Source of the DNA: a virus
IMG/VR virus record: IMGVR_UViG_3300023082_000067
Span: 1 to 12,860 of that record
Strand: one strand, 5' to 3'
DNA length: 12,860 nt
A program made the translations under genes and the position numbers. Under the pieces are notes generated by a model. It did not search any database. It was not told the DNA's origin and saw only the letters and a program-made list of their open reading frames with translations. Positions 1 through 12,860 of the stretch are shown one piece after another (position 1 is the first letter of the stretch; every line of letters starts with the position of its first letter).

Positions 1-127
1 ATAGCGCTTGCAGGTTCCATACTATTCTCTCCTTAGTTACAGGGTAACACCGTTAACCCGAGTCCAATAACCAGTAGCACCGTTACCATGCCATACGAAT
101 ATTTTACCGAAGTCAGGGGCTGCATAT
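1..127. repeat. terminal direct repeat, copy 1 (identical to 12734-12860)
   Basis: Base-by-base comparison: atagcgcttgcaggttccatac...ggggctgcatat occurs at both ends. It contains the first 20 nt of the 76-aa gene and the last 91 nt of the fibre gene. Confidence 0.95.
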
Positions 128-1596
128 TGATCCCCAATAACAGCAGTAAAGATATTGTAAACACCGTCAACAGCAGTGCTAACGTCAATATAACCAGTCT
201 CAGAGCCAGCAGGTACGTTACCACCACTAGGAGCAGAAGTAGACTTGAGTGCAGTACCAAACCAATAACGGCCCGGTGGTACAAGGTTACGTTGTGCTTC
301 TGTACCCGTCTGAATAATACCAATAAGCCCACCAGTAATACCGCTAATGGTTACAAGTGCAGCACTAGCAGCTTGGTTAGGGTTGAGGTTAGGCCAGTTA
401 GCAAACACAGAACCGTTATAGTTAATACCAGTCTTACCAGTTGGGAAACCTACAGCAGCAGCACCAACAGAACGCCAAGTAACAGTGCTACCGCTAATAG
501 TCCAAATGTAAGTGTTAACAGGGTTGGTAAAAGTAGTTACAATTGCAGTTTGGTTAGTTGCATTGAGTCTTACAATTTCCACTTGTCCCGGTTGACTAGC
601 AAAAGGAGCACCAGTGAAAGCCCCAGCAGGGAACCAGTATTGACCAACAGGCAAAGCGTTAATACCCGCTTGTGTTGCAAACAGTGCAGCACCTTCTACA
701 AAGTCACCCTCTACATACTGACCAAAGCGGCTAAGTTGTGCAGCTTCGTTAGGGTTGGACAAAGGCCAAGCTGTAATGTTTACATAACCAGTTCCGGGGT
801 CATATTGAACTGTTGGAATAGGGTAGCCAGCAGTAGAAGCCGGAACACTGCCCCAAGTACCGTCACCTTTCAATACAGTGGTGCTAGAAGCAGTACCAGT
901 ACCCAAACGAGCAGTACCAAACACACCAGAAGTAATGTCAGCAGCAGCAAGCGTAACAACACCAGTCTTACCAGCAACAGAACGAACAGGAGCGTCAGAG
1001 GCAGTTACAAAGCCAGCACCGTTAGTAAGTTGGTTAGTGTTGGTTGGAATTACAGTGTTACCGGGCATAGCTTGGTTAGCAGCAGTACCAACAATAGGAG
1101 CAAAGGTAGTTGGTTTCCCTGTTACCTCAGTCCAAGTAGGAACATAGCTAGCGTCTTTAGCGCCTACGTCAGCAGCGTCTAGAACAACAACACCCACTTG
1201 ACCGTTTACGCTCTCAACGTCTCCACCACCACCCCCACCGCCTACAACAACAGCCCATTCAGCGTTCTGACGTGCATACTGTTGCCCGTCTACAGGTGCT
1301 TCCTCAAGAATGACACTAGCGGCTAGGTTGTCGGCAATAGACTGTGCTCTGTCGGCTTGGTCACTAGACTCCTGTGCAAAGCCATTAGCGTTAATTGCTT
1401 CTTGTATTGCAGTGTTAGCATTAGTTTCAGCTTGAGCTTGTGCAATTTCTGCATTAGCCTCAGCCAGTTGTGCAGCAGCTACACTTTCTTGAACATTGTC
1501 AGCACCAGCAGTAATGGTTGCTACGTCAGTTTCAAGGGTGTTAGTTGCTGTAGTAATACGCACAATAAGCGCGTCAAAGTCAGCATTAGTTGCCAT
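37..1596 (-). CDS. tail fibre / receptor-binding protein (519 aa)
   Basis: ATG at 1596 overlaps the upstream stop (TAATG). Ala/Gln-rich coiled-coil N-terminus, then EAPVDGQQYARQNAEWAVV and a Gly7 linker. Two copies of the fibre-type motif (VESVNGQVGVVVLDAADVGA, VRSVAGKTGVVTLAAADI), plus VLKGDGTWGSVP. Two tandem related C-terminal domains. Confidence 0.75.
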   Translation of the reverse strand: MATNADFDALIVRITTATNTLETDVATITAGADNVQESVAAAQLAEANAEIAQAQAETNANTAIQEAINANGFAQESSDQADRAQSIADNLAASVILEEAPVDGQQYARQNAEWAVVVGGGGGGGDVESVNGQVGVVVLDAADVGAKDASYVPTWTEVTGKPTTFAPIVGTAANQAMPGNTVIPTNTNQLTNGAGFVTASDAPVRSVAGKTGVVTLAAADITSGVFGTARLGTGTASSTTVLKGDGTWGSVPASTAGYPIPTVQYDPGTGYVNITAWPLSNPNEAAQLSRFGQYVEGDFVEGAALFATQAGINALPVGQYWFPAGAFTGAPFASQPGQVEIVRLNATNQTAIVTTFTNPVNTYIWTISGSTVTWRSVGAAAVGFPTGKTGINYNGSVFANWPNLNPNQAASAALVTISGITGGLIGIIQTGTEAQRNLVPPGRYWFGTALKSTSAPSGGNVPAGSETGYIDVSTAVDGVYNIFTAVIGDQYAAPDFGKIFVWHGNGATGYWTRVNGVTL

Positions 1597-2105
1597 TAAG
1601 TTAATTCCTCTATTACTATTGGTGTGAGTTGGTGAAGCTCTCTAATTACAGCTTCAAACATGTCTACAAGTTCAGGGAATGGAACAGGTTCACCCAATGG
1701 GCTACCTTCTGGCCCCGGTTGGTCTGTAGTTGTGTATAAGCAGTCAAACTGAAAGTGTTTAGGTGCTCTACCGGCTTTGGTGTAGTCCTTAGAAGCAATA
1801 ATTACATACCAGCCTTCTTGTTGCCCTACTTGACTGTTACCACTCACCCAAGCATAAGTTTTAACTTGTGTTGCTTGTGGGGGTAAGTCACCGTATGCAG
1901 GAAGGTCACGAAGGTATAAGGTTCTGTAATTCTTGTAACTAGTGCCATAGTCAGCAAGGCTAAACATTGTTCCTTGTTTGAATGGTTGAATGTTACCCTT
2001 TACAAAGAATGGTTCTGTGGTGAAGGTTTGAAAGTCACCGTCAACATAGTAGCCATAGGTTGTAACAAAGGGAACCCAGTTTCTATAGAATGCTGCAATG
2101 CTCAT
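1596..2105 (-). CDS. hypothetical virion protein (169 aa), possible head-tail joining or neck component
   Basis: ATGA overlap with the terL stop and TAATG overlap with the fibre start, so it is translationally coupled between terminase and fibre. Looks beta-rich. No motif I can name. Confidence 0.7.
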   Translation of the reverse strand: MSIAAFYRNWVPFVTTYGYYVDGDFQTFTTEPFFVKGNIQPFKQGTMFSLADYGTSYKNYRTLYLRDLPAYGDLPPQATQVKTYAWVSGNSQVGQQEGWYVIIASKDYTKAGRAPKHFQFDCLYTTTDQPGPEGSPLGEPVPFPELVDMFEAVIRELHQLTPIVIEELT

Positions 2106-3595
2106 AGTAGCGTACTACCTCCCAAGCGTTTATATTGTGTTGAGTTCTGGTTAATACGAATAGTAGGAATTAAACTACCACCCGTTAGCATGTTGTAGCA
2201 GCTAGCCACGGCATCGACGATATCGTCATGTTGTCCGCTACAGTTATTACCGTCGAACGCTTCCATTTCTGCATAGTGTTCTTTAGTAAACACACCGGGA
2301 GCTACAAACACTTTCCCTTCTTGTAAAGCAATTAGAAAGTTCTCGGCTCGTGCCAACTTGCCCTTTCTTGTACTGTCTAGCACCACCTTATGACCTAATG
2401 CAGTCAAGCGGGCTTTCTTCTGGTCTGCTACCACCCTACCAGACGCACCAGCGTCAACAGGAATGGTTACATAGGTTTCTCTACCGTCTTCTTTAGCAGT
2501 GTTCTCAATTAGAGCCTGTACCATTGCTGGCCCGTCTCTGAGGCTTACCATATTCAGAATGTAGAAGTATCCAGCGTTCTTGTCATAAGTGGCCTTAATA
2601 CCCCGAGTCCAGTCAGGATCTTTGTTCCCTGCATGGGGTTTTGTACTAGCTAGGTCATAACTGCGAACAGTGGGCAAACCTAGTGGTATTTCTCTCAAGC
2701 TCACTTCTTTGAATTCGTCACGGTCAATATATCCGTCACCCTCAGTTTTAATAAACCAGTTGCCGAGCAGGTAGCGAGCGCGGTCTACAGTTTTCAAGTT
2801 CTCAAGTTTATGAACGTACTGTGGGAGGTGCTTACGAACATAGGGGTTATCGTAGACATTTGCCGAGTAATAAACGAACTTGAGGTGCATTGCGGCTTGT
2901 TCCTTACCTACCTCAGCTACCATGTCTTCAAACGTTTTCCACCACCTAAATTCCCCAGCAACTTGCAACATATACGTGGTTACACCGTCCCTCTCTTTAA
3001 TTGCATAACCGTCTTCACCTACATAGCCAGCATTAACAAGCCAAGTGCAAAGGAAGCTGGTATTCAGAGGGTTACAAGTAAGGCGTAGTTGGTGTTTCTG
3101 TTTACTCTTGGAACGTAACCTTGACGTCAAAAACCAGACGTCTTCTTCTTGACACTGTTGGCTTTCGTCTACCAGACATTCAGTCATTTGTGACCCATGC
3201 CAGTCGTCTTGGTTATTGAACAAGTGGTGACACTTAACCTCAGCACCAGACGGGAAAGCCCAACTACTTTCAATTTTGTTTGACGTAATGTTGTATGGTG
3301 CAAACAAGCGTATGCCTGTACTCCACAAACTACCCGCCATTTTCATTTGCTTTTGACTAGCCCGAGCTACACCAGCAACATAGTTCTTATCCCACATACC
3401 AGCGAGCATAAGACGAATTAAACTTAACTGTGTCTTACCTGCCGAAGCAGCCCCACCCCACACTACAATGTCATGCACGTTATCATTGAGGTAGGTTTCT
3501 TGTTTAATTGACAGCGGACATAGAATTTCAATTTCTTCTAGGTCTTCTTGTGTTAGGTGAAACGTGTAATTAAACTCTCTTTTTGCCTTAGCCAT
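2102..3595 (-). CDS. terL: terminase large subunit (497 aa)
   Basis: Walker A VVWGGAASAGKTQ and Walker B CLVDESQQ. C-terminal RNaseH-like nuclease signatures IPVDAGASG and HDDIVDAVASCY. GAGG RBS 8 nt upstream of the ATG at 3595. Confidence 0.95.
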   Translation of the reverse strand: MAKAKREFNYTFHLTQEDLEEIEILCPLSIKQETYLNDNVHDIVVWGGAASAGKTQLSLIRLMLAGMWDKNYVAGVARASQKQMKMAGSLWSTGIRLFAPYNITSNKIESSWAFPSGAEVKCHHLFNNQDDWHGSQMTECLVDESQQCQEEDVWFLTSRLRSKSKQKHQLRLTCNPLNTSFLCTWLVNAGYVGEDGYAIKERDGVTTYMLQVAGEFRWWKTFEDMVAEVGKEQAAMHLKFVYYSANVYDNPYVRKHLPQYVHKLENLKTVDRARYLLGNWFIKTEGDGYIDRDEFKEVSLREIPLGLPTVRSYDLASTKPHAGNKDPDWTRGIKATYDKNAGYFYILNMVSLRDGPAMVQALIENTAKEDGRETYVTIPVDAGASGRVVADQKKARLTALGHKVVLDSTRKGKLARAENFLIALQEGKVFVAPGVFTKEHYAEMEAFDGNNCSGQHDDIVDAVASCYNMLTGGSLIPTIRINQNSTQYKRLGGSTLL

Positions 3596-3619
3596 TAGTT
3601 AGCCTCAAATTGTAGAAAC

Positions 3620-3656
3620 AAAAAAGGGGAAAGGAGCGGTTTAGACTCCCCTCCCC
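3620..3656 (-). terminator. strand-specific rho-independent terminator after the capsid gene
   Basis: Minus-strand RNA GGGGAGGGGAG-UCUAAACCG-CUCCUUUCCCC followed by U6. This is an 11-bp stem with two G-U pairs. On the plus strand those pairs become A-C mismatches, so it works only for minus-strand transcripts. Confidence 0.8.
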
Positions 3657-3667
3657 TATAGGACTAG

Positions 3668-4672
3668 TTACGCACCAACAGTAAGGGCAACAGTTGCACC
3701 GAATTGTTCGTTAATAACCAGAGTGCTTTGCTCAGACTCTACTTCAACGTAACGGTCTTTCGGGTCACGGTAGGTAGAAGCGAAACGACGCGAACCAACA
3801 CCACCCAAACCAGACAGGGTAGAAGCTGGGCCGTAGAACGAAACACCCAGTTCAGTACGTGGAACCAGAACGCCAGCACCGTCAGCCAGAACTTCAACAA
3901 CAGCACCAGTCTTAGTGGTGAAGGTGTCGTCATACAGAACTACGTCAACGTTGCCGAAACGGAACATGGTGTAACCGTTAGCTACAGAACCAAGCTCGTT
4001 ACGCAGTGGGTTGCCCGAAGCCTGAGAGAACTGGTAGGCAGTGGCAACGTCTGGGCTTGCAATAATTTCAGCAAACATTTCAGCAGAAGCAAACAGAATG
4101 TAACCCTGAATACGACCGCCATTCATGAGGCCAGCACGGCTTTGAGCTTGAGCAGCACGCAGGTCAGCCAGAACAGTAGCAGAGCTAATAGTACCGGTAG
4201 GACGTGCAACACCGAACTCAGTAGCCATGTTAATGGTGCCGTAGTTGGTAGTAACAACAACACCGTTCAAGGTCATTTGAGCTTTCAGGTATTCTTCATG
4301 TACGTCATGACGCATTGCTTGACGTTCAAGTTCTTGTGCAACAGCTTGAGCAACAATTGCTTCACCTTCGCTACCGAATGCACGAACTCCAGCCAGTTTT
4401 TCACGGCCAAGAGTTTTAACAATTGGGTAGTGCGGAATAGCCAGAGTGTGAATGTCAAAAGGGCTGTCTTCGGTGCTGTTCTTCTGTGCTACGTTGCGCA
4501 GGTGGTCGTCCAGAATAGCCAAGCTATTTTCACGAACGTCAAAGCTAACAGCGTCAGTACGAACAGTTTCACCACGGTACAGACCAAGGGAACCAATAAG
4601 GCCGGGTTGAAACGGAATACGTTCAATGGCGGAAGTTTGGTCTACAACTTGGGTGTTATTCAGAATAGGCAT
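3668..4672 (-). CDS. major capsid protein, HK97 fold, lambda gpE-like (334 aa)
   Basis: Size, position after the scaffold and decoration genes, and overall resemblance to the phage major capsid protein E family (N-terminal PILNNTQV...IERIPFQPGLIGSLGLY, C-terminal STLVINEQFGATVALTV). AAGGA RBS, and followed by a strong terminator. Confidence 0.88.
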   Translation of the reverse strand: MPILNNTQVVDQTSAIERIPFQPGLIGSLGLYRGETVRTDAVSFDVRENSLAILDDHLRNVAQKNSTEDSPFDIHTLAIPHYPIVKTLGREKLAGVRAFGSEGEAIVAQAVAQELERQAMRHDVHEEYLKAQMTLNGVVVTTNYGTINMATEFGVARPTGTISSATVLADLRAAQAQSRAGLMNGGRIQGYILFASAEMFAEIIASPDVATAYQFSQASGNPLRNELGSVANGYTMFRFGNVDVVLYDDTFTTKTGAVVEVLADGAGVLVPRTELGVSFYGPASTLSGLGGVGSRRFASTYRDPKDRYVEVESEQSTLVINEQFGATVALTVGA

Positions 4673-4701
4673 TATTTATTTTTCCTTAGTATTAATTTAA
4701 A

Positions 4702-5028
4702 TTACTTGTTAACTACAACAATGCCAGCGTCAGCAAAGGCAGCGTCATGAGTTGCAGCTACATAGCCAACAAGGGCTTGAGCGTTTACAGTGGTAGGGTT
4801 GCCGCGAGTCATGAGACGTACACGAGTACCAATTGCCCACTGACCAGAGCCGTTAACAGCAGAAGGGAACACAGCAGTACCAACAATAGCGAAACCGCCG
4901 TTGTAAGCAACAACTTGACCAGACACAGCAGCAACAGCCAAAGCAACTTCGTCAAACGGTACGTTATAGTCACCATTCATTTGTACAATGAAGTCTTCTT
5001 GAGCACCAACAGTAGCGATAATAGGCAT
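4702..5028 (-). CDS. small head protein, probable decoration or cement protein (108 aa)
   Basis: Gly/Ala/Val-rich small protein encoded directly upstream of the capsid gene. It shares an almost identical ~30-nt translation initiation region with the capsid gene, and both proteins start MPI. TAATG overlap with the scaffold stop. Confidence 0.55.
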   Translation of the reverse strand: MPIIATVGAQEDFIVQMNGDYNVPFDEVALAVAAVSGQVVAYNGGFAIVGTAVFPSAVNGSGQWAIGTRVRLMTRGNPTTVNAQALVGYVAATHDAAFADAGIVVVNK

Positions 5029-5387
5029 TATTTATTTCCTTTGTATTTTTCAGAGAGGTAAGAGTCAACAAGGTTTTCGCCTTCGTCGGCGGTGTTGTCT
5101 TGTTGGTCTTGTTTCGTTTCAGGGTTAGTTTCTTTCTTGAACCAGTCACCACCACTAATGGTTTCGATCTGGCGTTCTTTCGTTTCCAGCAGTTCAAAGA
5201 CTGTGTTAAAACCTTCTTGGCCTTGCAGTTTCATAAAGACTGGGGCAAGTTCGTTAACTAGTTCTTCGTCGTACACAATGCCCTTGAGGCGTTGTTTAAT
5301 TTGCTCCTCAAGAGCACCTTTGTTTTCGTCTGCTTTCTTGTTAGCACTCCCCAAGAGGCGTTCTAACAGACTCGGTTTTTCACTCAT
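5028..5387 (-). CDS. scaffolding protein (119 aa)
   Basis: Highly charged, apparently helical and acidic protein (EEQIKQRLKGIVYDEELVNELAPVFMKLQ...) between the portal and capsid genes. No protease gene is present. Confidence 0.6.
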   Translation of the reverse strand: MSEKPSLLERLLGSANKKADENKGALEEQIKQRLKGIVYDEELVNELAPVFMKLQGQEGFNTVFELLETKERQIETISGGDWFKKETNPETKQDQQDNTADEGENLVDSYLSEKYKGNK

Positions 5388-5774
5388 TTAAATATACCTG
5401 TTTGCGAATTGTGAACACTCACCACCAAAAGCCTTGTCAAAGTCATTCCAGTTCTTACGGTCACTACGGAGAATGACGGGAACCTTTGCACCAGTGCGGC
5501 GACCTTGCAAACTAACAAGACGTGCAGTCAGTGCTTCGACTAGAGGGCCAGTTTCACTAGCGTCTCCAATTTGCCAACGCTGTGGGCTTAGAGCAATGTT
5601 ATTAATAATACTTTCCAGTGCCATTATTGAACCGTCAATAACGCTGTTACCTGCAAGCTCATAAAAGTAAACATAAATGGAGTCTTCCAAATACGGTTCG
5701 TCTTCTATGAAGTCACCAGTGTTCAAACGCATTTGGTCAACAAAGTTACTGGGGTCAAGGTTTGTACTAGCCAT
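5388..5774 (-). CDS. hypothetical head protein (128 aa), possible gp6-like head-tail adaptor
   Basis: Trimmed from the 201-aa track ORF to the ATG at 5774, which sits inside AATGGCTAG overlapping the portal stop and has an AGGGGG RBS 7 nt upstream. The N-terminal pattern FVDQMRLNTGDFIEDEPYLEDSIYVYFYELAGNSV is reminiscent of connector proteins. Confidence 0.6.
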   Translation of the reverse strand: MASTNLDPSNFVDQMRLNTGDFIEDEPYLEDSIYVYFYELAGNSVIDGSIMALESIINNIALSPQRWQIGDASETGPLVEALTARLVSLQGRRTGAKVPVILRSDRKNWNDFDKAFGGECSQFANRYI

Positions 5775-7050
5775 TGTTAACCCCCTTTGCAGGTAGCAAC
5801 TCGGTATAGTCAGCTTTAGGGGCGTCTCCAGCTTCACGAATGAACGTCTCAAGCCCTTTGTCAGCAGTAACAGCGCCAGCGGTAACAAGACGGCTCCAGC
5901 CTTCTGTGAACTCTGTCCAGTCAAGCGGTTGCACTGGTTCAAATTCAAGACTAGGCACACGGTCAAGTGGCAAACCATTAAGTTCATAGGCAATACGAAC
6001 AGCCTTCTTAAACTCTTGACTAATTACCCGTTGAATGTTTTCAATAAACAGCGTCATAAGGTATGTGCTGTTGTCTGACAGAGCGAAAGAACCACCTCCT
6101 TCAGCGCCCATACTCAGAACCATAGTTTGAAGGCTAAGTTGAATTTCTTGGTTATACCGTGCAATGGCTTGACCAACGTTGTAGTTTTGAGCGTTACCGC
6201 CATTACCACCAACAGTAGTAATTTCAAACATACGAACGCCATTCTGTTGTGTGTCACTAGCAGACAGAATGTAAGAGCCTTTACCAGCATGAAGCATTTC
6301 AGCTTGTGTCAGAAGGTTAGCTACATAAATAGCTTCTTCACTGTTTGGTTCAGCGTAAAACTTGTTAATGTATTCAGACGGTACTTTAATGTCTAGAACA
6401 CCAGAAAGGTTTTTAGCAACACCAATAGCTTCATACTCTTGCAGGATCTTTTTAGCCTTCCATGCTGTATATGCACCGTACAACAAACTTTTACCAAGTG
6501 GGAAGTCTGAGTCTGGTTCTACACGGAAAAACAAAACCTTGTCACCGTTAATGTTCTTTTGTTCAGTACCAACGTTAACAAGTAGTCCGTCATTGTCAGG
6601 ACTTGACAGTTTCAACCTTTTGAGTCGCCCACCGTCCATTTCAAACTTTTCAACTGAGGTTAGGTGAATAGGGGAAATTGTTTTAAATACGAACTTACCG
6701 CCTACACGTTCACACACAACTTCATTCAAGCTGCAACCGTAGTCAAGCATTTGCAACCAGTTAGAAATAAGTCTCTTTTTGTCGTAGTCTTCCATTGTTT
6801 CCAAAGAAAGGTTCAGAGCGTCAATTAAGGCTTTCTCTTGCTGGTTACTGTCTACGTGGTATGCAATTTGATAGTTACCTTTACTGAGTACCGCTTTAAT
6901 GAAACTCATGCTACCGGAAATAATACCGTCTAGTTTCATGTCTCTGTAAGTGTAAAAGGCTTTGTTAACCGAAAGGTCAGACTTACCAAGTTGTAATACT
7001 GTGTTCTCTACGTGTAGTGGCTGGCTCTGTTGAGTCAGGTTAGCCGCCAA
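5767..7050 (-). CDS. portal protein (427 aa), Mu gp29/DUF935-like
   Basis: Size, position and portal-like sequence (YRDMKLDGIISGSMSFIKAVLSKGNYQI..., a Gly-rich tunnel-loop-like GGNGGNAQN, MGAEGGGSFA). The start is TTG at 7050, with GGAG 9 nt upstream. The first in-frame ATG is 37 codons further in. Confidence 0.88.
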   Translation of the reverse strand: MAANLTQQSQPLHVENTVLQLGKSDLSVNKAFYTYRDMKLDGIISGSMSFIKAVLSKGNYQIAYHVDSNQQEKALIDALNLSLETMEDYDKKRLISNWLQMLDYGCSLNEVVCERVGGKFVFKTISPIHLTSVEKFEMDGGRLKRLKLSSPDNDGLLVNVGTEQKNINGDKVLFFRVEPDSDFPLGKSLLYGAYTAWKAKKILQEYEAIGVAKNLSGVLDIKVPSEYINKFYAEPNSEEAIYVANLLTQAEMLHAGKGSYILSASDTQQNGVRMFEITTVGGNGGNAQNYNVGQAIARYNQEIQLSLQTMVLSMGAEGGGSFALSDNSTYLMTLFIENIQRVISQEFKKAVRIAYELNGLPLDRVPSLEFEPVQPLDWTEFTEGWSRLVTAGAVTADKGLETFIREAGDAPKADYTELLPAKGVNNG

Positions 7051-7056
7051 TGTTTG

Positions 7057-7308
7057 TTACTCCTGTTGTTGTAGGTCTTTGGTTAGTTTGTCTAGCCACC
7101 GTTCCCACGTCATTGTGTAGCAGCCACCAAACTTGACGTACTGTTGCGTAGAACGCCACAAGTATTCCAAGTCATAAGGGTGGTTAGCCAACATGTAACG
7201 TAGGTATTCTTTCAATTCAGGGCTAGGTGTTTTGGTACATTCCTTGTTACTGAAACAGTGCAAGGGAATGTCTTTAAGAGTCTTATAAGGACTTGTCTGT
7301 TTACTCAA
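7057..7308 (-). CDS. hypothetical protein (83 aa)
   Basis: ORF coupled to the upstream gene by a TTGA overlap (TTG start at 7308). It ends 6 nt before the portal start. Trp/Tyr-rich, with no recognisable motif. The first internal ATG is at codon 39. Confidence 0.55.
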   Translation of the reverse strand: MSKQTSPYKTLKDIPLHCFSNKECTKTPSPELKEYLRYMLANHPYDLEYLWRSTQQYVKFGGCYTMTWERWLDKLTKDLQQQE

Positions 7309-7817
7309 TGTAGTGTTTCCTTTACTGGAATAAGTTTCCCTAGTTTGACAAACACTTTAATGTCAATATTCACACCTTCACTGCGGTCATAGGTGCGGCC
7401 AAACTTACGGTTCATAGCTTCAACTGGTGCAGTAGTACCAAAGAATTTAAGACGTGCTTTGTTCTCTTTTACATAGGCTTTAAGGTCAGCACTCAGAACA
7501 ACAACCCATTGTGCTTTCCCTTCCCACCACACTTGCCACATGTAATAGTCACTTTCATTCTTGACAAAGCAACCCGGTTGTGTTGCACCGTTACGAGTGT
7601 TAATGGTCAGCAATTCAATTTGTACGTTCTTGTATGCCTTGGAACCGCTCAAGCTGTCTTTCACAGAACAGGACTTGACAGAGCCGTCACGAGCTGGCAC
7701 CATTACGTCAATGTCTTTGTATTGAAGTGCAAGTTCAGTCACCAACGTTCCCTTGAACTGTTGTGCTGCTACGTGCTCAGCGTTAAAACCTTTACCGTCA
7801 AAATGTACATTACTCAT
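7305..7817 (-). CDS. hypothetical protein (170 aa), first gene of the morphogenesis block, weak PD-(D/E)xK-like pattern
   Basis: ATG at 7817 with a GGAGGG RBS. The spacing of E14, D35/D37 and S51-V-K53 resembles a restriction-endonuclease-like core, but the acidic residue of the ExK motif is Ser. Confidence 0.75.
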   Translation of the reverse strand: MSNVHFDGKGFNAEHVAAQQFKGTLVTELALQYKDIDVMVPARDGSVKSCSVKDSLSGSKAYKNVQIELLTINTRNGATQPGCFVKNESDYYMWQVWWEGKAQWVVVLSADLKAYVKENKARLKFFGTTAPVEAMNRKFGRTYDRSEGVNIDIKVFVKLGKLIPVKETLH

Positions 7818-7918: not shown

Positions 7919-7972
7919 TATTTAGTTCGTGTATTACTACAGGTCTAAATAAAGTTTAGTTGAATTCGCGGT

Positions 7973-8015
7973 ATAGGCACCACACTAACCATGTCCTATA
8001 CATAGGCACCATACT
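7973..8015. repeat. direct repeat pair ATAGGCACCA(C/T)ACT
   Basis: The 14-mers at 7973-7986 and 8002-8015 differ at one position and start 29 bp apart. They sit in non-coding DNA just after the 52-aa ORF. Confidence 0.7.
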
Positions 8016-8042
8016 GTGCCCCTCTCCACCACTTGCAGACAG

Positions 8043-8201
8043 TCACAAGACTGGTGCTCTTTTGTCTAGTGGCAGACTCATTTGTTCAAGAAGCCACCAC
8101 TCTACATTCTTACCTTCTTTCTTTAGTTCCTCTAAGAACTTGTCACTGTACTTACGTCTCACTTGGCGGAAGTTCTCTCCCGTTACTACGTCAAGTCTCA
8201 T
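8043..8201 (-). CDS. small unlisted ORF (52 aa), MRLDVVTGENFRQVRRKYSDKFLEELKKEGKNVEWWLLEQMSLPLDKRAPVL
   Basis: Hand-translated from ATG 8201 to TGA 8043. Charged, protein-like composition, and located just downstream of a sigma70-like promoter. The RBS is weak (GAG). Confidence 0.4.
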   Translation of the reverse strand: MRLDVVTGENFRQVRRKYSDKFLEELKKEGKNVEWWLLEQMSLPLDKRAPVL

Positions 8202-8234
8202 AACACTAACTCTGTTTCTGTTGGTTAAGTAAGT

Positions 8235-8263: not shown

Positions 8264-8282
8264 CCCCTAGAGCAACTTTATT

Positions 8283-9203
8283 TTATACTGACATAACATA
8301 TTCTTCAAACTCCGGCATTGAGTCAAAGTCTGGAACCCAATTGTCTATTTCTTCTTTGAAGTAGTCGCTAACGTCAGCACCAACATTGTTTGCAAACCAA
8401 GCCTCAAACCCAATGTCAATTACTTCATTCTTCTTAGGTGCCTTGTTCCACCATTCGCCGGGGCTAAAGTCTTCTGCACTATCAAACAATGTAAAGCCAT
8501 TACCACGCACTTCATAATTGTTAGTACCGCTGTACTTGGTTGTAATGTCAAACACAGGTCCAGTGTACGGCGCTGGTGGTCCAACAAAAGGTTCATACAG
8601 TGCGCGTTGCTGTGTCTCTTTATCGAGCTTGTAATACGTGTTGTTGGCACTAGGAATACCGCTTGCACGTCCCTTGTAACCAAGCATAGGAGCAATGAAC
8701 AACTTAATAAAGCCTTTCTTACTCTCTTGCTGTTGTACCCATTCCTCTACAAGCTTCAACTTACGTGCTAGGTTGGACTCATTAATACCAAGCTTTGCAC
8801 ACAAGAAAGAACGCTTACAAAGAATAATGTTCTTATAGCTAATGCACTCTACAAGCTGTTTCATGAACTTGTATTGAGGCGTGCTAATTAATGCTTTCTC
8901 TTTCAGTGTCCGTACACGGTAGTCACTTTCTTTCTTGAACCATGTAAGGTCTGACTTTAGCTTTAGTCCTCGTTGGTCAACAGTGGCTTTCATAACGTCA
9001 CTCAACTGGTCAGGGTCTGTACACTCATGAGCGGTACGAACAGTGGCAGAGTAAAACCGTTTGTCGTCTGTGCTAGCTTGGGTGTTGACAACCTCATACA
9101 CAGGAGTAATAATTTCACCAGTGACAAGGTCAACAAGGTGTTTACCAATTGCAGCCGTGTTTTCAGTTACTTCATACATTGGTTGTGGTACATGGTTAAG
9201 CAT
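8283..9203 (-). CDS. winged-helix DNA-binding protein, candidate replication initiator (306 aa)
   Basis: I prefer the ATG at 9203 (AGAGGT RBS 6-7 nt upstream) over the TTG at 9218. Central HTH-like segment LCAKLGINESNLARKLKLVEEWV and an acidic C-terminal tail DFDSMPEFEEYV. It is the only sizeable non-structural protein in the genome. The function is inferred, not recognised. Confidence 0.8.
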   Translation of the reverse strand: MLNHVPQPMYEVTENTAAIGKHLVDLVTGEIITPVYEVVNTQASTDDKRFYSATVRTAHECTDPDQLSDVMKATVDQRGLKLKSDLTWFKKESDYRVRTLKEKALISTPQYKFMKQLVECISYKNIILCKRSFLCAKLGINESNLARKLKLVEEWVQQQESKKGFIKLFIAPMLGYKGRASGIPSANNTYYKLDKETQQRALYEPFVGPPAPYTGPVFDITTKYSGTNNYEVRGNGFTLFDSAEDFSPGEWWNKAPKKNEVIDIGFEAWFANNVGADVSDYFKEEIDNWVPDFDSMPEFEEYVMSV

Positions 9204-9324
9204 TTTCTTACCTCTCAAGGTTGAATTGTGTCCGTCACTAAATGGAAAAGTGAAGACTAAATAGGGCTACAGCCCACGGTTTATAAGGGGTGTACTAGTT
9301 TTCTTATTACTTTATAAAGAAACT

Positions 9325-9513
9325 CTATTTCTGTTTAGCACTCAAGGCTAACAGAATATTATCCAACAGTAAAGAAGGGCTTTGGTTTTGTGTAACAGCT
9401 AGAGAGTCAAGAAACAACAAACTCTCTTTTGAAAGGTAGAACCGACGACGAATAAGGTTTTTATCTTTTACCACTTGCTCGCTGTCTTTACTTAGTTTAA
9501 CATACTCACTCAT
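9325..9513 (-). CDS. ribbon-helix-helix (Arc/CopG-type) transcriptional regulator (62 aa)
   Basis: IRRRFYLSKESLLFLDSLAVTQNQSPSLLLDNILLAL fits the beta strand-helix-turn-helix pattern. GAGG RBS. It is the first gene of the long minus-strand unit, next to the divergent control region. Confidence 0.6.
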   Translation of the reverse strand: MSEYVKLSKDSEQVVKDKNLIRRRFYLSKESLLFLDSLAVTQNQSPSLLLDNILLALSAKQK

Positions 9514-9638: not shown

Positions 9639-9760
9639 TTCTGTTAGTGCTATAAAAACCTCTACCTCTTAATATTATAGTACCATGTATTTTTAATTCT
9701 GTAAAGCATTATTTGTTGTAAGTGCAAGAAAAACGTGTTAAAGGGCTTAAAAGTGAAGGA

Positions 9761-9806
9761 ATTCTGACAGACGGTCTTGTATTATAGAGAATTATAGAGT
9801 CAGAAT
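9761..9806. promoter_or_regulatory. composite element: 8-bp inverted repeat ATTCTGAC/GTCAGAAT enclosing the tandem repeat ATTATAGAG(A/T) x2 (9781-9800)
   Basis: Read directly from the sequence: attctgac at 9761-9768, attatagaga and attatagagt at 9781-9800, gtcagaat at 9799-9806. Confidence 0.5.
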
Positions 9807-9938
9807 AATTGTTTTTGTCTGTTAGAAAGCAGACGAACGGTATGCACTTTGTTTGTGTATAGGCTTGCGTGCCTGTGTGGTTCTGTTATTCTGTACCTAC
9901 ACCAACTGAGAAGCCCAAGAGGGCTAAGGTAGAAAGAA

Positions 9939-10217
9939 ATGGAACACGTAGCCACCATTAGCCAAATGCGTAACCTGTTAGACTCAACAGCCGGTAAAAT
10001 ATTCTCTGTGACATTCGTAAAGAAAGACGGCACTGTTAGAGACATGGTTTGCAGGAACGAAGTAACAAAGGGCACTAGCGGCGGTGTAGCTGGTCACGCA
10101 CACAAAGAAGAACTTTACACTGTGTATGACATTCAGGCTCAAGGCTTTCGCTGTGTTAACCTCACAACTGTAAAACGTATTAAGTGTGGTGAACTCAACA
10201 AGGAGTGGTATGTATGA
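9939..10217 (+). CDS. small SH3-like beta-barrel protein of unknown function (92 aa)
   Basis: The pattern KIFSVTFVKKDGTVRDMVCR...LYTVYDIQAQGFRCVNLTTVKRIK matches my memory of a widespread small phage protein family (DUF2693-like), not verified. An AAGG RBS-like element lies upstream. Confidence 0.65.
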   Translation: MEHVATISQMRNLLDSTAGKIFSVTFVKKDGTVRDMVCRNEVTKGTSGGVAGHAHKEELYTVYDIQAQGFRCVNLTTVKRIKCGELNKEWYV

Positions 10218-10351
10218 GCGTGCAATTGTTCATTGAAGGTGAACCAAACGTGTACTCTGTTGTCATATTTAAGAACATGAGTATTGTGCAAGAAATACAG
10301 AGAGCAGCTAGGAAATTCGGTAAGCGTTGTTTTTATATACCTTGTGCATAG
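10214..10351 (+). CDS. small unlisted ORF (45 aa), MSVQLFIEGEPNVYSVVIFKNMSIVQEIQRAARKFGKRCFYIPCA
   Basis: ATGA overlap with the stop of the 92-aa gene, and a strong AAGGAG 8 nt upstream of the ATG. A terminator follows. Confidence 0.5.
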   Translation: MSVQLFIEGEPNVYSVVIFKNMSIVQEIQRAARKFGKRCFYIPCA

Positions 10352-10389
10352 CTGTCGCTCTATAAATATAGTGTTTGGTTCGTCCCTTT

Positions 10390-10413
10390 GCCCCTTCCCC
10401 GAGGGGCTTTTTT
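10390..10413 (+). terminator. rho-independent terminator at the convergent junction
   Basis: GCCCCT-tccccg-AGGGGC followed by T6. The T tract overlaps the o-spanin stop codon on the other strand, so the hairpin may serve both converging units. Confidence 0.8.
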
Positions 10414-10636
10414 ATGGGCGTAACTTATTCAACTGTGCGTTACCCTTCCTTACTTCCAGTGTCAAGCTAATGTAGCATTGTGCTAGCTCTGTCTCGCTGT
10501 AGTCATTCAGTGGGCATTCAGCAAGCGCCTGAACGTCATACACAGGACAAACGTTAGGGCTTACCATTGAAGTCTTTGAGCACCCTAGTAACAGGCTCAG
10601 ACAGAGAGTTGTTAACCCCATTCTTGTTACGTTCAT
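10412..10636 (-). CDS. o-spanin (outer-membrane lipoprotein, 74 aa)
   Basis: Signal sequence with lipobox LLLGC (Cys19). The start is embedded in the i-spanin gene in another frame and the ORF extends past its stop (overlapped architecture). Several further Cys residues. Confidence 0.8.
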   Translation of the reverse strand: MNVTRMGLTTLCLSLLLGCSKTSMVSPNVCPVYDVQALAECPLNDYSETELAQCYISLTLEVRKGNAQLNKLRP

Positions 10637-10928
10637 CGGCTATACCTTTGAGTGTGAGTGTGTAGGAGTCCAGTTCCTTTTTAAACTTAGCTGTCATTGT
10701 GTCTAACTCTTTGTTCCAGTCTTTACGCTGTTGCTCATAGAGTTTCATTTGTTGTATTGAGTATTCAGCAGACTCTAACTTACTTTGACTTACAGCTAGC
10801 TCCCAATTGCGGTTAGAAAGCTCATTACTTAGCGTCATATATGAGTAAAGGAACCACGTTAGGACTAAACCCAAGCTGACCCACAGCACAGCACTAAATG
10901 TTATTTTACTTGTTATAAATGCCCACAT
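10554..10928 (-). CDS. i-spanin (124 aa)
   Basis: N-terminal TM segment FSAVLWVSLGLVLTWFLYSY followed by coiled-coil sequence. Lies directly after the endolysin gene and overlaps the o-spanin gene. Confidence 0.8.
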   Translation of the reverse strand: MWAFITSKITFSAVLWVSLGLVLTWFLYSYMTLSNELSNRNWELAVSQSKLESAEYSIQQMKLYEQQRKDWNKELDTMTAKFKKELDSYTLTLKGIADERNKNGVNNSLSEPVTRVLKDFNGKP

Positions 10929-11478
10929 ATTCCCATATCCTTTTAACGTATGTTGTTGTCTCTACAGAATGCTTTCCTGTAATGAGTGGAAGTGCTTTTG
11001 CCATTGGTTCATAATAAAGGCTGTTACCTCCTTTAGCTTGTGCCTTCAATATGTTTCCAAGTCCAGCGTTATAGCTAGCTAGTGCTAAAGAGTGTCTGTC
11101 TACTTCTGGTCTAGGCTTCTTAAACTGTCCTCTCAAGTAGTTCATATAATAAGCATGAGCTTGAATGTTGTAAGAGGAAGCATAAGCTTTAGTTCCAACT
11201 GGAAACCCTAACTCCTTACTAACCTGTGTCCAAGTGTCGGGCATGAACTGACCTAACCCCATAGCACCAACTGGTGACGTTGCTTGTGTGTCTAAGCGAC
11301 TCTCAGCTACTAATTGAGCCTTTGCCCACACCCAAGGTATAGAAGGGTTGTAAACAGCGTTCCATTTGGCTATTTGTAGGTCATAAATGGTGTTACGGAG
11401 AGCGTTAGCACTAGTAGGAGTACACACACCAAGGGTAGCTAATAAGAGAGCTAGAACTACACTATAAATGCGACACAT
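10906..11478 (-). CDS. endolysin, family-1 lytic transglycosylase (SLT domain) with N-terminal signal sequence (190 aa)
   Basis: Catalytic AES, then GAMGLGQFMPDTW and SYNAGLGN motifs. The N-terminus MCRIYSVVLALLLATLGVCTPTSANA looks like a Sec signal or SAR segment. Confidence 0.88.
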   Translation of the reverse strand: MCRIYSVVLALLLATLGVCTPTSANALRNTIYDLQIAKWNAVYNPSIPWVWAKAQLVAESRLDTQATSPVGAMGLGQFMPDTWTQVSKELGFPVGTKAYASSYNIQAHAYYMNYLRGQFKKPRPEVDRHSLALASYNAGLGNILKAQAKGGNSLYYEPMAKALPLITGKHSVETTTYVKRIWEYVGIYNK

Positions 11479-11690
11479 ACAATTAACCCTAGAGCAATGG
11501 AACTACCAAGAAACCTAAGACCATAGTAATGACTCATAGCTTTAGGACACTCTTCTATTCTGTCAAAGGCTTTCTTAAAGTCTATACCTAATAGCTTGTC
11601 AAAGAACTTTAATAGGACGTATTGAGTGAGTAGAAAGAGAATGAATGCAACTAAACCCATTCCAAGTTTAAGCATAAAGAGAGTAAACAT
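11457..11690 (-). CDS. holin, two TM segments (77 aa)
   Basis: Hydrophobic segments at about residues 5-27 and 56-77 with a charged linker. It sits immediately upstream of the endolysin gene and overlaps it by 22 nt. AAGGA RBS. Confidence 0.7.
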   Translation of the reverse strand: MFTLFMLKLGMGLVAFILFLLTQYVLLKFFDKLLGIDFKKAFDRIEECPKAMSHYYGLRFLGSSIALGLIVCVAFIV

Positions 11691-11705
11691 ATTAAATATT
11701 TCCTT

Positions 11706-11720
11706 CGTGCATATTGCACG
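11706..11720. promoter_or_regulatory. 15-bp palindrome CGTGCA-TAT-TGCACG abutting the holin RBS
   Basis: Perfect 6-bp arms. On the minus strand it reads CGTGCAATATGCACG and is followed directly by AAGGAAAT(N8)ATG. Confidence 0.5.
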
Positions 11721-11812
11721 GTTAGTATTGAGTTAGTTAAGTTCGGTTAAATGCTCTGAACTCCTTATATAGCAAGGGTTGTAGGCAATTACCTTAGTTG
11801 TGTTAGTGTTAC

Positions 11813-11874
11813 TTACGTTGGCCCGACGACATTTTTTTGACGTTGTCAACACTTATTTTACGTCACCGACGAAC
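11813..11874. repeat. direct repeat TTACGT(TGGC/CA)CCGACGA flanking a T7 tract
   Basis: TTACGTTGGCCCGACGAC at 11813-11830 and TTACGTCACCGACGAAC at 11858-11874, with atttttttgacgttgtcaac between them. Confidence 0.6.
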
Positions 11875-11889
11875 GGTTACTGCCAGAAT

Positions 11890-12335
11890 ACTGACACAAT
11901 GTCCAATGAATAATATCTATCGACTAGGTTTGTCCAATAGTATTTACCTATGTGTCTAGTCATTGTATTTATCTATCAGCTCAGCAGTCCTAATAGAGTA
12001 TGACTAAGACAGAGAGCTAGCACACACAGAGTAGACTGTCAAGTGTAGCTGACCAATGGTACTGTATAAGTTAACAGGTATTGACACACATACTGAACTG
12101 TGCATAGCAACCTTGTAGCTACTATAGAGTACGTGGAATATAGATAATATGTTAAATTGAAATAAAACTTCTTTCAGTTATTTACTGCTTTGTCAAGTAG
12201 TTTATTCTCATTGCATATTTCTATTCATTTGTGTCAGTCAATAGAGTGTGACTATGCTGTGTGTATAGGTTTAGTCTATCGAATGTCTGTGTCCAATGAA
12301 TACATACAATTAGACAAGCTCACCAATATCCTGTA
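11890..12335. repeat. iteron-like repeat field around an AT-rich core, candidate origin of replication and/or packaging site
   Basis: TGTCCAATGAATA occurs exactly at 11900-11912 and 12290-12302. Each copy is followed 30-31 bp later by a degenerate copy (TGTCCAATAGTAT at 11931, TCACCAATATCCT at 12320). A further TGACCAATGGTAC lies at 12050. AATAGAGT(A/G)TGACTA occurs at 11992-12006 and 12240-12254. The AT-rich stretch spans roughly 12131-12232. Confidence 0.55.
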
Positions 12336-12522
12336 AAATAATAGTTGACGCCCCTATGAAAAGCATAGTCCCATTACCACATTTTATTAGAATACCCCGC
12401 CTAATAGCTGTACCCTATTTATGGAACATTTGGAAAAGAAACCTCTACAGGCTACTTTGTGTTTCCCCGACTACATATAGCCACACATACATTAGTTATT
12501 ATTCGTCAGTAGACACTAAACT

Positions 12523-12753
12523 CTATGGTTTAGCGTTATGCTCTACTTGAATTTTAATTATCTCTACGTCCGTTTTCAGCTTATTAAGTGTGGCGTTAAT
12601 ATCACCTAGAACGTCGAGCTTTGTTTCTACCTTAGTTAGTCGTGAGTCTACGTCTTCCAGCTTCTTAAAGCGGTCTTTAATTAACCACCCAATGAAACCA
12701 AGTAGACCCACAACCACTATACCAACTAACCATATAGCGCTTGCAGGTTCCAT
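12523..12753 (-). CDS. small membrane-anchored coiled-coil protein (76 aa), function unknown
   Basis: ATG at 12753 (equivalent to position 20), with AAGGAGAG upstream, 16 nt after the fibre stop across the junction. N-terminal TM segment IWLVGIVVVGLLGFIGWLI, then a heptad-like KKLEDVDSRLTKVETKLDVLGDINATLNKLKTDVEII. Confidence 0.75.
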   Translation of the reverse strand: MEPASAIWLVGIVVVGLLGFIGWLIKDRFKKLEDVDSRLTKVETKLDVLGDINATLNKLKTDVEIIKIQVEHNAKP

Positions 12754-12860
12754 ACTATTCTCTCCTTAGTTACAGGGTAACACCGTTAACCCGAGTCCAA
12801 TAACCAGTAGCACCGTTACCATGCCATACGAATATTTTACCGAAGTCAGGGGCTGCATAT
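12734..12860. repeat. terminal direct repeat, copy 2. 12770-12860 is a redundant partial copy of the fibre gene 3' end, not a second gene.
   Basis: Identical to 1-127. A length of 127 fits a de Bruijn k-mer overlap of a circular assembly, or a short physical DTR. Confidence 0.95.

Follow-up and report, generated by a model that had tools for sequence, protein, structure and literature searches.

A 127-nt terminal overlap as a probable assembly remnant in the 12,733-nt genome of an unusually small bacterial virus

Gene content of the window

The window analyzed here is a stretch of viral DNA of 12,860 nt, in which the sole supported plus-strand gene encodes a 92-aa WYL_2 protein (85–89% identity in relatives). 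Its features are as follows.

1..127, no strand: 5' copy of the terminal overlap, exactly identical to 12734–12860
37..1596, minus: fibre, 519 aa, putative receptor-binding protein (PHROG tail, tail-fibre, and virion-structural families)
1596..2105, minus: head-closure (stopper) protein of the neck, 169 aa (profile and fold matches)
2102..3595, minus: large terminase (TerL), 497 aa (Pfam Terminase_6N and Terminase_6C; phrog_979, E = 1e-113)
3625..3657, minus: terminator-like hairpin between the capsid gene and TerL, 13-bp stem and T run (consensus scan only)
3668..4672, minus: major capsid protein, 334 aa (Pfam Phage_cap_E, E = 5e-39; phrog_29)
4702..5028, minus: 108-aa protein directly upstream of the capsid gene, kept in all relatives
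5028..5387, minus: 119-aa protein, conserved in relatives
5388..5774, minus: neck protein, 128 aa (profile matches to PDB 9mt4_C and 9c39_C, E ~2e-6)
5767..7050, minus: portal protein, 427 aa (Pfam Portal_Mu, E = 2e-15; phrog_113, E = 1e-44)
7057..7308, minus: 83-aa protein encoded upstream of the portal, conserved among both free and integrated relatives
7305..7817, minus: 170-aa protein, D-I-D ... S-V-K ... E pattern in invariant alignment columns
8043..8201, minus: small conserved protein, 52 aa, 88–90% identity in relatives
8283..9218, minus: 311-aa lineage-specific protein, swappable cassette, homologues only on contigs of ≤12.7 kb
9325..9513, minus: small protein conserved in relatives, 62 aa, heading the minus-strand block
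9939..10217, plus: WYL_2 / Sm-like SH3 protein, 92 aa (Pfam WYL_2, E = 1.8e-7; phrog_2267, E = 3e-20)
10390..10407, plus: GC-rich hairpin and T run where the WYL_2 and o-spanin genes converge (hairpin scan)
10412..10928, minus: overlapping spanin pair (PHROG Rz-like spanin families)
10906..11478, minus: lytic transglycosylase (endolysin), 190 aa (Pfam SLT, E = 3e-15; phrog_669 endolysin, E = 3.5e-29)
11457..11690, minus: holin-like membrane protein, 77 aa, hydrophobic (phrog_37365)
11691..12522, no strand: AT-rich gene-free stretch, ~830 nt, GC 36–37%
12523..12753, minus: 76-aa protein with a membrane anchor and coiled coil, directly after the fibre, start within the overlap
12734..12860, no strand: 3' copy of the terminal overlap, redundant and to be trimmed for the 12,733-nt unit; length equal to an assembler k

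The head, neck, and packaging genes resemble those of FelixO1-like, Mooglevirus, and Pakpunavirus/Otagovirus myoviruses (FelixO1, Bas63, Sf14, PaP1, phiPsa374). TerL, which comprises ATPase and RNaseH-like nuclease domains, has its best isolate matches in the Pakpunavirus/Otagovirus type at 31–33% identity, the portal protein is ~25% identical to FelixO1-like portals, the capsid protein reaches 25–29%, and the adaptor and head-closure proteins are homologous at the level of profile and fold. The 169-aa protein matches the profiles of PDB 9mt4_E (E = 2.5e-6) and 9c39_E (3.3e-5), both named ‘Head-closure protein’, and its AF2 model (pLDDT 77) retrieves the Bas63 and phiTE connectors and the E217 and Sf14 necks in Foldseek, and head-tail joining or stopper proteins in BFVD. 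The 128-aa protein is probably the head-to-tail adaptor/connector; its two matches, deposited merely as ‘Phage protein’, belong to the Bas63 and Sf14 neck/connector structures, and a profile search also gave a weak match to ‘Head to Tail protein gp72’.

Position suggests putative roles for three further proteins of this block: decoration for the 108-aa protein, which found no family or PDB match in Pfam, PHROG, or PDB (in Sf14, the decoration gene gp33 is numbered beside the capsid gene gp34; PMC11821841); scaffolding for the 119-aa protein, which had no matches in Pfam, PHROG, or a further homology search; and, as a guess, small terminase for the 83-aa protein, for which family searches gave no match. 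The motif of the 170-aa protein would fit a PD-(D/E)xK-type nuclease; Pfam and PDB searches returned no match to it, and weak homologues occur in Pectobacterium and Yersinia myoviruses. The 311-aa protein is a putative DNA-binding replication initiator, whose AF2 model (pLDDT 67) gave non-significant winged-helix, MarR, and RepE-like matches (E ≥ 0.019); in other relatives, unrelated proteins occupy its position. Overall, some nine genes carry no functional assignment.

The lysis cassette consists of the 77-aa protein, whose location directly upstream of the endolysin points to a holin role, the endolysin, with a hydrophobic leader at its N-terminus, a 124-aa i-spanin (10554–10928), and a 74-aa lipoprotein o-spanin (10412–10636) with a visible lipobox, LLLGCS. 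It persists in relatives despite a change in endolysin type (SLT vs CHAP). The fibre has a conserved N-terminal part and a variable, fast-diverging C-terminal part among relatives, and its residues 152–224, a short segment shared with FelixO1/Pakpunavirus-type myoviruses, show 49–56% identity to the tail fibres of phiPsa374-like Pseudomonas myoviruses. The 76-aa protein, at 42–96% identity in relatives, is always encoded after the fibre gene. Between it and the holin-like gene, the 11691..12522 stretch holds no minus-strand ORF of ≥50 aa and keeps its place in all relatives, five of which have a gap of 843–909 nt with conserved blocks there, making it a candidate regulatory, origin, or packaging region.

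Terminal overlap and circular map

Direct comparison of the window ends shows that positions 1–127 and 12734–12860 are exactly identical. This is the longest exact end overlap, the bases flanking it differing on both sides, and a repeat scan of the whole window found the end pair to be the only long repeat (the runner-up spans 36 nt at 72% identity), with no further copy of the 127-mer inside. An exact match of this length within 12.9 kb cannot have arisen by chance; removal of the duplicate end leaves a unit of 12,733 nt. The overlap contains the fibre gene's final 30 codons with its stop, a 16-nt spacer, and the initial 20 nt of the 76-aa gene. With the ends joined, the minus strand reads ...GGTGTTACCCTGTAA (fibre stop at 39–37), followed by the 16-nt spacer CTAAGGAGAGAATAGT, in which AAGGAGAG is restored, and the ATG at 20, equivalent to 12753. 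Just two ORFs of ≥50 aa cross the junction, the 76-aa gene and an antisense shadow ORF of 59 aa, and an ORF check across the junction found none broken by the joining. An exact end overlap and a gene-consistent junction, both put forward in the original prediction, are thus borne out.

Other assemblies bear on how the overlap arose. A MEGAHIT contig of 5,394 nt (k141_714187, ENA ERZ27228600; L015), 100% identical to the window, runs from 12441 to 12733 and then from 1 to 5101, and therefore crosses the junction in a separate assembly, but its reads may be the same as the window's. For a sister genome, two public assemblies are 100% identical over its 12,379-nt unit, one with a 127-nt overlap located inside TerL (L002 and L020) and the other (L021) with one of 55 nt, at a non-coding site that lies ~310 nt upstream of the holin-like gene, a comparison that is the sister genome's and not the window's own (capsid protein 89% identical, DNA ~80%). 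Three other relatives overlap by 153, 144, and 55 nt and close within the holin-like gene (L008), a fibre gene (L011), and the head-closure gene (L030), respectively; at the position homologous to the window's 127 nt, no repeat was found in relatives. The value 127 is a standard top k of SPAdes. The same phenomenon is described for the ‘DTR contigs’ of CheckV, with an exact k-mer-length end repeat, an arbitrary break, and mutually permuted related genomes; the Extended Data Fig. 3 legend of that paper names repeats of 55, 77, or 99 nt, as against 127 nt here, equal to k and with a random break point, and such repeats serve there as a marker of complete genomes (PMC8116208).

Overlap length thus goes with the k-mer of the assembler, and the place of the break is arbitrary, which argues against a physical terminal repeat at these coordinates and agrees with the k-mer signature suspected at the outset. 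In the mechanism we propose, a de Bruijn assembler would go round a cyclic graph, cut it at an arbitrary point, and leave a k-mer-length remnant. We hold with high confidence that the 127 nt are such a remnant and that the trimmed window is the complete 12,733-nt circular-map genome of a small dsDNA virus of a Gram-negative bacterium; as a by-product of loop closing, the identical ends imply that the window holds the whole genome, an unusually small one for a bacterial virus. The earlier claim of a complete replicon is supported by gene order kept all the way round in relatives, whose units measure 12,139 to 13,232 nt, and by relatives' contigs levelling off at 12–14.4 kb: all but one of the ~120 capsid-protein clusters of the lineage lie on contigs of ≤14.4 kb, the exception being an integrated relative, and homologues of three genes are nearly all on contigs of that size.

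A circular or permuted molecule rather than a physical repeat, as originally proposed, stands for these coordinates; elsewhere, a real terminal repeat may exist. A circular map with linear packaged DNA, carrying a fixed repeat of some hundred bases that the assembler collapsed, has a probability that we place a little short of even; it is compatible with the remnant explanation and refines the original wording. Fixed terminal repeats are collapsed into a circle by short-read assemblers. The nearest characterized TerL and portal relatives, the Pakpunavirus/Otagovirus-type and FelixO1-like phages, include members with fixed-end packaged DNA and repeats of 1,190 bp (PaP1; PMC3652863) and 581 bp (Felixounavirus Pr103Blw; PMC8303462), and so fixed repeats of 0.6–1.2 kb make a real repeat elsewhere possible. 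One candidate place is the 830-nt gene-free region 11691–12522, long and conserved in position. However, 31–33% identity is insufficient for transferring a packaging mode, the genome has yielded neither a recognized small terminase nor a packaging site, and the data are equally compatible with headful packaging of a permuted genome. Moreover, the integrated relative pairs TerL with an HNH nuclease, an arrangement typical of cohesive-end packaging.

Gene set and mode of life

The gene set is that of a myovirus-type head and neck, one fibre, a lysis cassette, and a swappable putative initiator, without a recognizable tail: family, profile, and fold searches of the closed genome found no tail tube, sheath, baseplate, integrase, or polymerase, and tail hub, nozzle, and ejection proteins were likewise not found in the genome. 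In such a life cycle, host machinery would replicate the genome, TerL would cut concatemers and package linear DNA into a small capsid, the element's own lysis cassette would lyse the cells, and a neck-mounted fibre would set the host range. We consider autonomy likelier than reliance on tails from a helper phage, because the lysis cassette is complete and persists when the endolysin type changes and because the C-terminal part of the fibre diverges fast; a particle acting on its own would have to use a neck-plus-fibre delivery device, for which there is no precedent. The genome is similar in size to those of Salmonella phage astrithr (11.6 kb) and Mycoplasma phage P1 (11.7 kb), which are the smallest among isolated tailed phages (PMC7762592), and it shares with them a structural module that is very short beyond the capsid gene (between that gene and the endolysin, astrithr has just a 146-aa and a 568-aa protein) and a predicted capsid class of T = 3, about 11.8 kb. 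Yet astrithr has a DNA polymerase and a 362-aa packaging protein, whereas the window lacks a polymerase and its TerL has two domains and 497 aa, and tblastn of the window proteins against the astrithr genome gave zero matches. The FelixO1/Pakpunavirus-type genomes, in contrast, span 85–100 kb and encode contractile tails, baseplates, polymerases, and tRNAs, all lacking in the 12.7-kb genome; Sf14 heads are T = 9.

Roughly a one-in-four prospect, by our estimate, is that the element is a capsid-forming satellite, building its own small heads and necks and taking tails from a co-infecting FelixO1/Pakpunavirus-like myovirus. The long-tailed-type adaptor and head-closure proteins, present without terminator, tube, sheath, or baseplate, would suit this, as would the fibre segment matching the fibres of that myovirus group. 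Like cfPICIs, the genome falls within 10–15 kb, encodes its own capsid, portal, head-tail adaptor/connector, and TerL, and lacks tail genes. Its lineage also has a relative (capsid protein 75% identical) integrated in a bacterial chromosome beside a recombinase and an HNH gene, a 13.8-kb island of head module, HNH, TerL, and serine recombinase without lysis genes, which looks like a tail-less satellite or capsid-forming island. Unlike cfPICIs, however, the window lacks an integrase, an AlpA-type regulator, and a primase, encodes a lambda-E-type capsid protein, and yielded no prohead protease. Its complete lysis cassette, retained even when its type changes, and its own fibre argue against a satellite, holins and tails being forbidden components in satellite-detection models for capsid-forming islands and thus grounds for exclusion (PMC10085698). 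No integrated copy of the window's own clade was found, and no helper has been identified. A non-integrating precedent is MiniFlayer, a satellite of Streptomyces phage MindFlayer: as described in its abstract (PMC10690885), it is likewise small, has its own encapsidation machinery, and shows no signs of integration, but it lacks key replication genes, bears a tail of its own that is adapted to gripping the helper, and belongs to a different host phylum.

Alternatives to assembly closure

Two readings that deny this origin of the overlap are both very improbable. Short fixed repeats do occur in tailed phages, and the repeats of PaP1 (PMC3652863) and Pr103Blw (PMC8303462) are those of fixed-end genomes, but a genuine 127-nt direct repeat with physical ends at 1 and 12860 would cut through fibre codons and the beginning of the 76-aa gene, equals an assembler k in length, and is at odds with the relative that has exactly 127 nt inside TerL and, for the same genome, 55 nt at a third place, as well as with the repeat-free homologous position in relatives. 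Misassembly of a piece of a larger phage or prophage through a repeated 127-mer could be suggested by the capsid homologue on 70- and 127-kb contigs, but that homologue sits in another element, which differs in accessory genes and has a recombinase of its own, the window has no second internal copy of the 127-mer, the longest contigs are ≤14.4 kb in 119 of 120 capsid clusters and in all g169 and g311 clusters, and independent closures, all in the same gene order, come from at least five relatives.

Closure of the genome and the form of the packaged DNA

Nucleotides 1-127 of the window are repeated exactly at 12734-12860, which leaves a unit of 12,733 nt. Comparison of the ends and a repeat scan of the whole window confirmed that this is the longest exact end overlap, flanked by different bases, and the sole long repeat, the next-best being 36 nt at 72% identity. 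The original prediction that joining the ends is consistent with the genes also held when the circularised sequence was read: on the minus strand, the junction runs GGTGTTACCCTGTAA, CTAAGGAGAGAATAGT, ATG, rebuilding the stop codon of the 519-aa fibre gene (39-37), a 16-nt spacer containing AAGGAGAG, and the start codon of the 76-aa gene (position 20, equivalent to 12753). Only two ORFs of at least 50 aa lie over the circularised junction, the 76-aa gene and a 59-aa antisense shadow ORF.

A second assembly passes through the junction, as the public metagenome contig L015 (ENA ERZ27228600 contig k141_714187, 5,394 nt), recovered by capsid-protein look-up, is contiguous over 12733/1. It spans 12441-12733 and then 1-5101 of the window at 100% identity, with gene calls in the order 108 aa, capsid, TerL, 169 aa, 519 aa, and 76 aa. 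Going by its k141 name, L015 comes from an assembly with a different k, possibly of the same reads.

The usual top k of SPAdes is 127. The CheckV authors explain that end repeats of 55, 77, or 99 nt equal the assembler k and come from a circular template cut randomly, and offer permutation among related contigs as the test (PMC8116208). Five relatives in public metagenomes bear on this point. IMG/VR UViG_3300012254_000002 (12,506 nt), rebuilt from contigs L002 and L020, has an exact 127-nt overlap within the TerL gene, and L021 (ENA ERZ1030752 NODE-63, 12,434 nt), identical to it across the 12,379-nt unit (100%), has a 55-nt overlap and is cut ~310 nt upstream of the holin-like gene; thus, one genome was recovered with overlaps of two lengths, cut at two places. 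In L030 (12,194 nt), the overlap is 55 nt long and lies within the head-closure gene; in L008 (12,645 nt), it is 153 nt long, with three mismatches, and lies within the holin-like gene; and in L011 (13,376 nt), it is 144 nt long and lies within a fibre gene. The window breaks at the boundary of the fibre and 76-aa genes, its relatives break in five other places, and none of the relatives examined has a repeat at the position homologous to the window's ends. To judge by these sequences, the relatives settle the choice between a k-mer artefact and a physical repeat at the window ends in favour of the artefact. As a feature of assemblies, such an overlap is ordinary, and the artefact is a known one; in practice, the 127 nt should be trimmed, the map treated as circular, and no terminal repeat reported.

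The three mismatches of the L008 overlap (1-153 versus 12493-12645) all lie near one end, and 153 is no standard k, which suggests that the assembler overran the closure point into a strain variant. A physical terminus was sought by placing the ends of contigs from 34 relatives on the window; these ends scattered, with small clusters only near 2824-2842 (L001, L014, L017, and the L002 overlap) and 8165-8206 (L004, L007, and L014). These clusters come from strain-level relatives and probably mark branch points of the assembly graph at which strains part.

Since TerL includes a nuclease domain, the DNA should be cut from concatemers and packaged in linear form. Linear packaging combined with a circular assembly leaves three options: circular permutation by headful packaging, a collapsed fixed terminal repeat, or joined cohesive ends. 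Fixed terminal repeats of 1,190 bp and 581 bp are found in PaP1 (PMC3652863) and Felixounavirus Pr103Blw (PMC8303462), respectively. Since these represent the groups with the nearest TerL and portal, it is quite possible that a real terminal repeat would lie elsewhere in the genome; the TerL identity, 31-33%, is too low for transferring a packaging trait. The original reading of the overlap as an assembler k-mer on a circular map is thus upheld by L015 and by the differing overlaps of the relatives, with its doubt about a physical repeat confined to the window's ends.

Gene content, head and neck, and the missing tail

The overlap certifies completeness, so the list of about 20 genes is final: head, neck, fibre, and lysis functions are fully represented, without tail, polymerase, or integrase. 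Every relative keeps the same order, namely the 170-aa and 83-aa proteins, portal, 128-aa, 119-aa, and 108-aa proteins, capsid, TerL, 169-aa protein, fibre, 76-aa protein, a gene-free stretch of 830-900 nt, holin-like protein, endolysin, spanins, a WYL_2 protein on the opposite strand, a 62-aa protein, a variable cassette, and a 52-aa protein, which closes the circle. Closed units in relatives measure 12,139 to 13,232 nt. In a collection of 5.8 billion proteins, contigs with homologues of the 311-aa putative initiator do not exceed 12.7 kb, and those with homologues of the 169-aa protein do not exceed 13.1 kb; among the 120 best capsid clusters (66-94% identity), 119 are confined to contigs no longer than 14.4 kb. 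The lineage is recurrent and uncultured, with dozens of public contigs of 12.1-14.4 kb; its sequences are already public, yet uncharacterised. The largest member, L034 (contig Ga0209414_1000895, 14,402 nt), has three successive fibre-like ORFs (345, 288, and 283 aa, within 13,458 nt of the contig) in place of a single one.

The capsid (Phage_cap_E), portal (Portal_Mu), and two-domain TerL (Terminase_6N and Terminase_6C) all score above the curated Pfam cut-offs and are of the tailed-phage (Caudoviricetes) type; PHROG matches agree, with TerL assigned to phrog_979 (E = 1e-113). Among isolates, TerL, portal, and capsid match best, at 25-33% identity, to myoviruses of 85-100 kb of the Pakpunavirus, Otagovirus, and FelixO1 type. 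Profiles of the 169-aa and 128-aa proteins match chains of the same two solved necks: the former matches the head-closure protein of Bas63 (9mt4_E, E = 2.5e-6) and Sf14 (9c39_E), the latter chain C of 9mt4 and 9c39 (E about 2e-6). The predicted 169-aa model (pLDDT 77) resembles the necks of Bas63, phiTE, E217, and Sf14, and also matches head-tail joining or stopper proteins of long-tailed phages. Both proteins were identified solely by profile and fold searches, with nothing found by tblastn against phage records. In the fibre, a 73-residue part shares 49-56% identity with the tail fibres of myoviruses like phiPsa374.

Beyond the adaptor, head-closure protein, and one fibre, no tail component expected of the Caudoviricetes was identified. 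No window protein resembles a tail terminator, tube, sheath, baseplate, or hub in Pfam, PHROG, profile, or fold searches, and Pfam and PHROG found no sheath, tube, or baseplate gene in the closed genome. About nine proteins are without assignment, none with a tail match, and profiles of the 83-, 108-, 119-, and 170-aa proteins matched nothing in the PDB. As the genome is closed, the absence of a tail is real and not a truncation.

The lysis genes encode an SLT transglycosylase, a spanin pair, and a holin-like membrane protein. The endolysin type differs between sub-clades, from SLT to a putative CHAP, with the surrounding layout unchanged:

Endolysin slot in the window and its relatives
Window 10906-11478: SLT transglycosylase
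L030:2847-3353: 168-aa protein with a sub-threshold CHAP match (23.1 bits versus a cut-off of 26)
L009:10859-11368 and L034:3748-4248: proteins of 166-169 aa similar to the 168-aa protein of L030

A closed 12.7-kb genome with a two-domain terminase, myovirus-type head and neck, fibre, and lysis genes but without a tail fits no described group that we could find. The genome has no close isolate, as a megablast search of 50,697 phage records with the complete unit returned nothing. Closure is moderately interesting through what completeness reveals.

FelixO1/Pakpunavirus-type myoviruses have genomes of 85-100 kb with a contractile tail, baseplate, and replication genes, whereas the window has 12,733 nt; only their head and neck proteins are homologous to those of the window, at 25-33% identity. 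Among tailed phages in isolation, the smallest are astrithr (11.6 kb) and Mycoplasma phage P1 (11.7 kb) (PMC7762592), both similar to the window in size. For Salmonella phage astrithr, rejected as a relative, the likeness ends there: no window protein matched its genome by tblastn, and it encodes a DNA polymerase, whereas Pfam and PHROG found neither a polymerase nor an integrase in the window. Small podoviruses of the phi29-like or Astrithrvirus kind are marked by a protein-primed family-B DNA polymerase and a phi29-type packaging ATPase; the window does not fit this kind, with no polymerase found in it and no tblastn match to astrithr. By size, the lineage belongs with the 'missing' T = 3 capsids predicted for tailed phages (PMC7762592).

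An integrated relative and the satellite question

The members of capsid cluster P0121 (75% identity) come from contigs 126,651 and 69,965 nt long, within an integrated island:

L050:7000-20800 (also in L051, L052, and L053): integrated island, 13.8 kb, 40-49% GC

This is one and the same island in four assemblies, flanked by host genes of 64-73% GC, with genes for an RND efflux pump and a radical-SAM protein at one end and a MarR gene at the other. It shares the 83-aa protein, portal, 128-, 119-, and 108-aa proteins, capsid, and TerL with the window at 49-75% identity (capsid 75%, TerL 61%, portal 61%). Its additional genes encode an HNH nuclease, a 655-aa tape-measure-like protein, HNH fragments, and a large serine recombinase, and it lacks the 170-aa and 169-aa (head-closure) proteins, fibre, 76-aa protein, lysis cassette, and 311-aa protein. 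The HNH nuclease adjoins TerL, an arrangement typical of cohesive-end packaging. No attachment-site repeats were found around the island, as expected for a serine recombinase. The island resembles a capsid-forming satellite island or a mini-prophage in decay. Two scans of 185,579 species-representative genomes, built on the capsid and portal alignments and weak, with two short peptide patterns each, found no integrated copies of the window's own clade. A common head module ties free genomes to an integrated, satellite-like relative, making the lineage a concrete system for the minimum size of a terminase-packaged virus and for the interconversion of satellites and minimal phages.

Like capsid-forming satellite islands (cfPICI), the window has its own capsid, portal, head-tail adaptor/connector, and TerL. 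Unlike them, it encodes a holin-like protein, an SLT endolysin, a spanin pair, and a tail-fibre-like protein, and no integrase or recombinase domain occurs in any window ORF, versus the chromosomal residence of cfPICI. SatelliteFinder treats holin and tail-associated genes as forbidden in cfPICI (PMC10085698), and the window's clade fails the cfPICI definition. A complete lysis cassette kept through endolysin replacement and a fast-diverging fibre are read here as signs of an autonomous lytic cycle. On this reading, the window would be an autonomous virus that infects with neck and fibre alone, which would, to our knowledge, have the smallest genome known with a two-domain terminase.

Because no tail or ejection gene is present, a non-integrating satellite that borrows its tails stays under consideration as the minority reading. 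Such a satellite would be lysis-competent and capsid-forming, with small heads, a myovirus-type neck, and its own fibre, taking tails from a FelixO1/Pakpunavirus-like helper; we regard it as unlikely, with odds well short of even. If true, it would be the free-living counterpart of the integrated, recombinase-bearing relative in a high-GC host. MiniFlayer is a precedent for a non-integrating satellite (PMC10690885).

Variable cassette, gene-free stretch, and small genes

The features discussed below are as follows:

Window features outside the structural and lysis genes, with the cassette slot in relatives
Window 3625-3657, minus strand: strong hairpin with a T run, between the capsid gene and TerL
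Window 7305-7817, minus strand: 170-aa protein with invariant D35-I-D37, S51-V-K53, and E68
Window 8283-9218: cassette slot, 311-aa protein
L008:2420-3157, L021:2943-3704, L030:3393-4886, and L034:4352-5719: cassette slot in relatives
Window 10390-10407, plus strand: strong hairpin with a T run, between the convergent WYL_2 and o-spanin genes
Window 11691-12522: gene-free AT-rich stretch of about 830 nt, 36-37% GC, no supported gene

The 311-aa protein is lineage-specific, with no sequence match in Pfam, PHROG, NCBIfam, or the PDB. Its predicted model gave winged-helix matches only, and since these are non-significant, a role as replication initiator stays a guess. Other relatives carry in this slot unrelated proteins of 245-262 aa or a Walker-A protein of 455-497 aa on the opposite strand. 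The putative replication slot is exchangeable, with three unrelated proteins across relatives, none with a Pfam match.

The invariant residues of the 170-aa protein are reminiscent of a PD-(D/E)xK nuclease; Pfam scans of the family found nothing, and its only isolate homologues are hypothetical proteins of Pectobacterium and Yersinia myoviruses of about 90 kb. Because the integrated relative lacks this protein and carries an HNH nuclease in its stead, one may replace the other in function.

The gene-free stretch is kept between the 76-aa and holin-like genes in all relatives, with a few conserved blocks, and may serve as an origin, as a packaging site, or as the region of a terminal repeat. 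It makes up 6.5% of a very compact genome. Repeat motifs in it are weak; TGTCCAATGAATA occurs twice, a count reached in 6 of 200 shuffles. GC skew gave no clear origin, a promoter scan found matches at the level of shuffled sequence, and Rfam and tRNA scans returned nothing above threshold. The hairpin at 3625-3657 would lower the amount of transcription that reaches the packaging and neck genes.

A 90-aa ORF (7960-8232, plus strand) lies antisense to the 52-aa gene (8043-8201, minus strand). Conservation in relatives at the protein level is 82-85% for the former versus 88-90% for the latter, and one of these ORFs is probably the shadow of the other.
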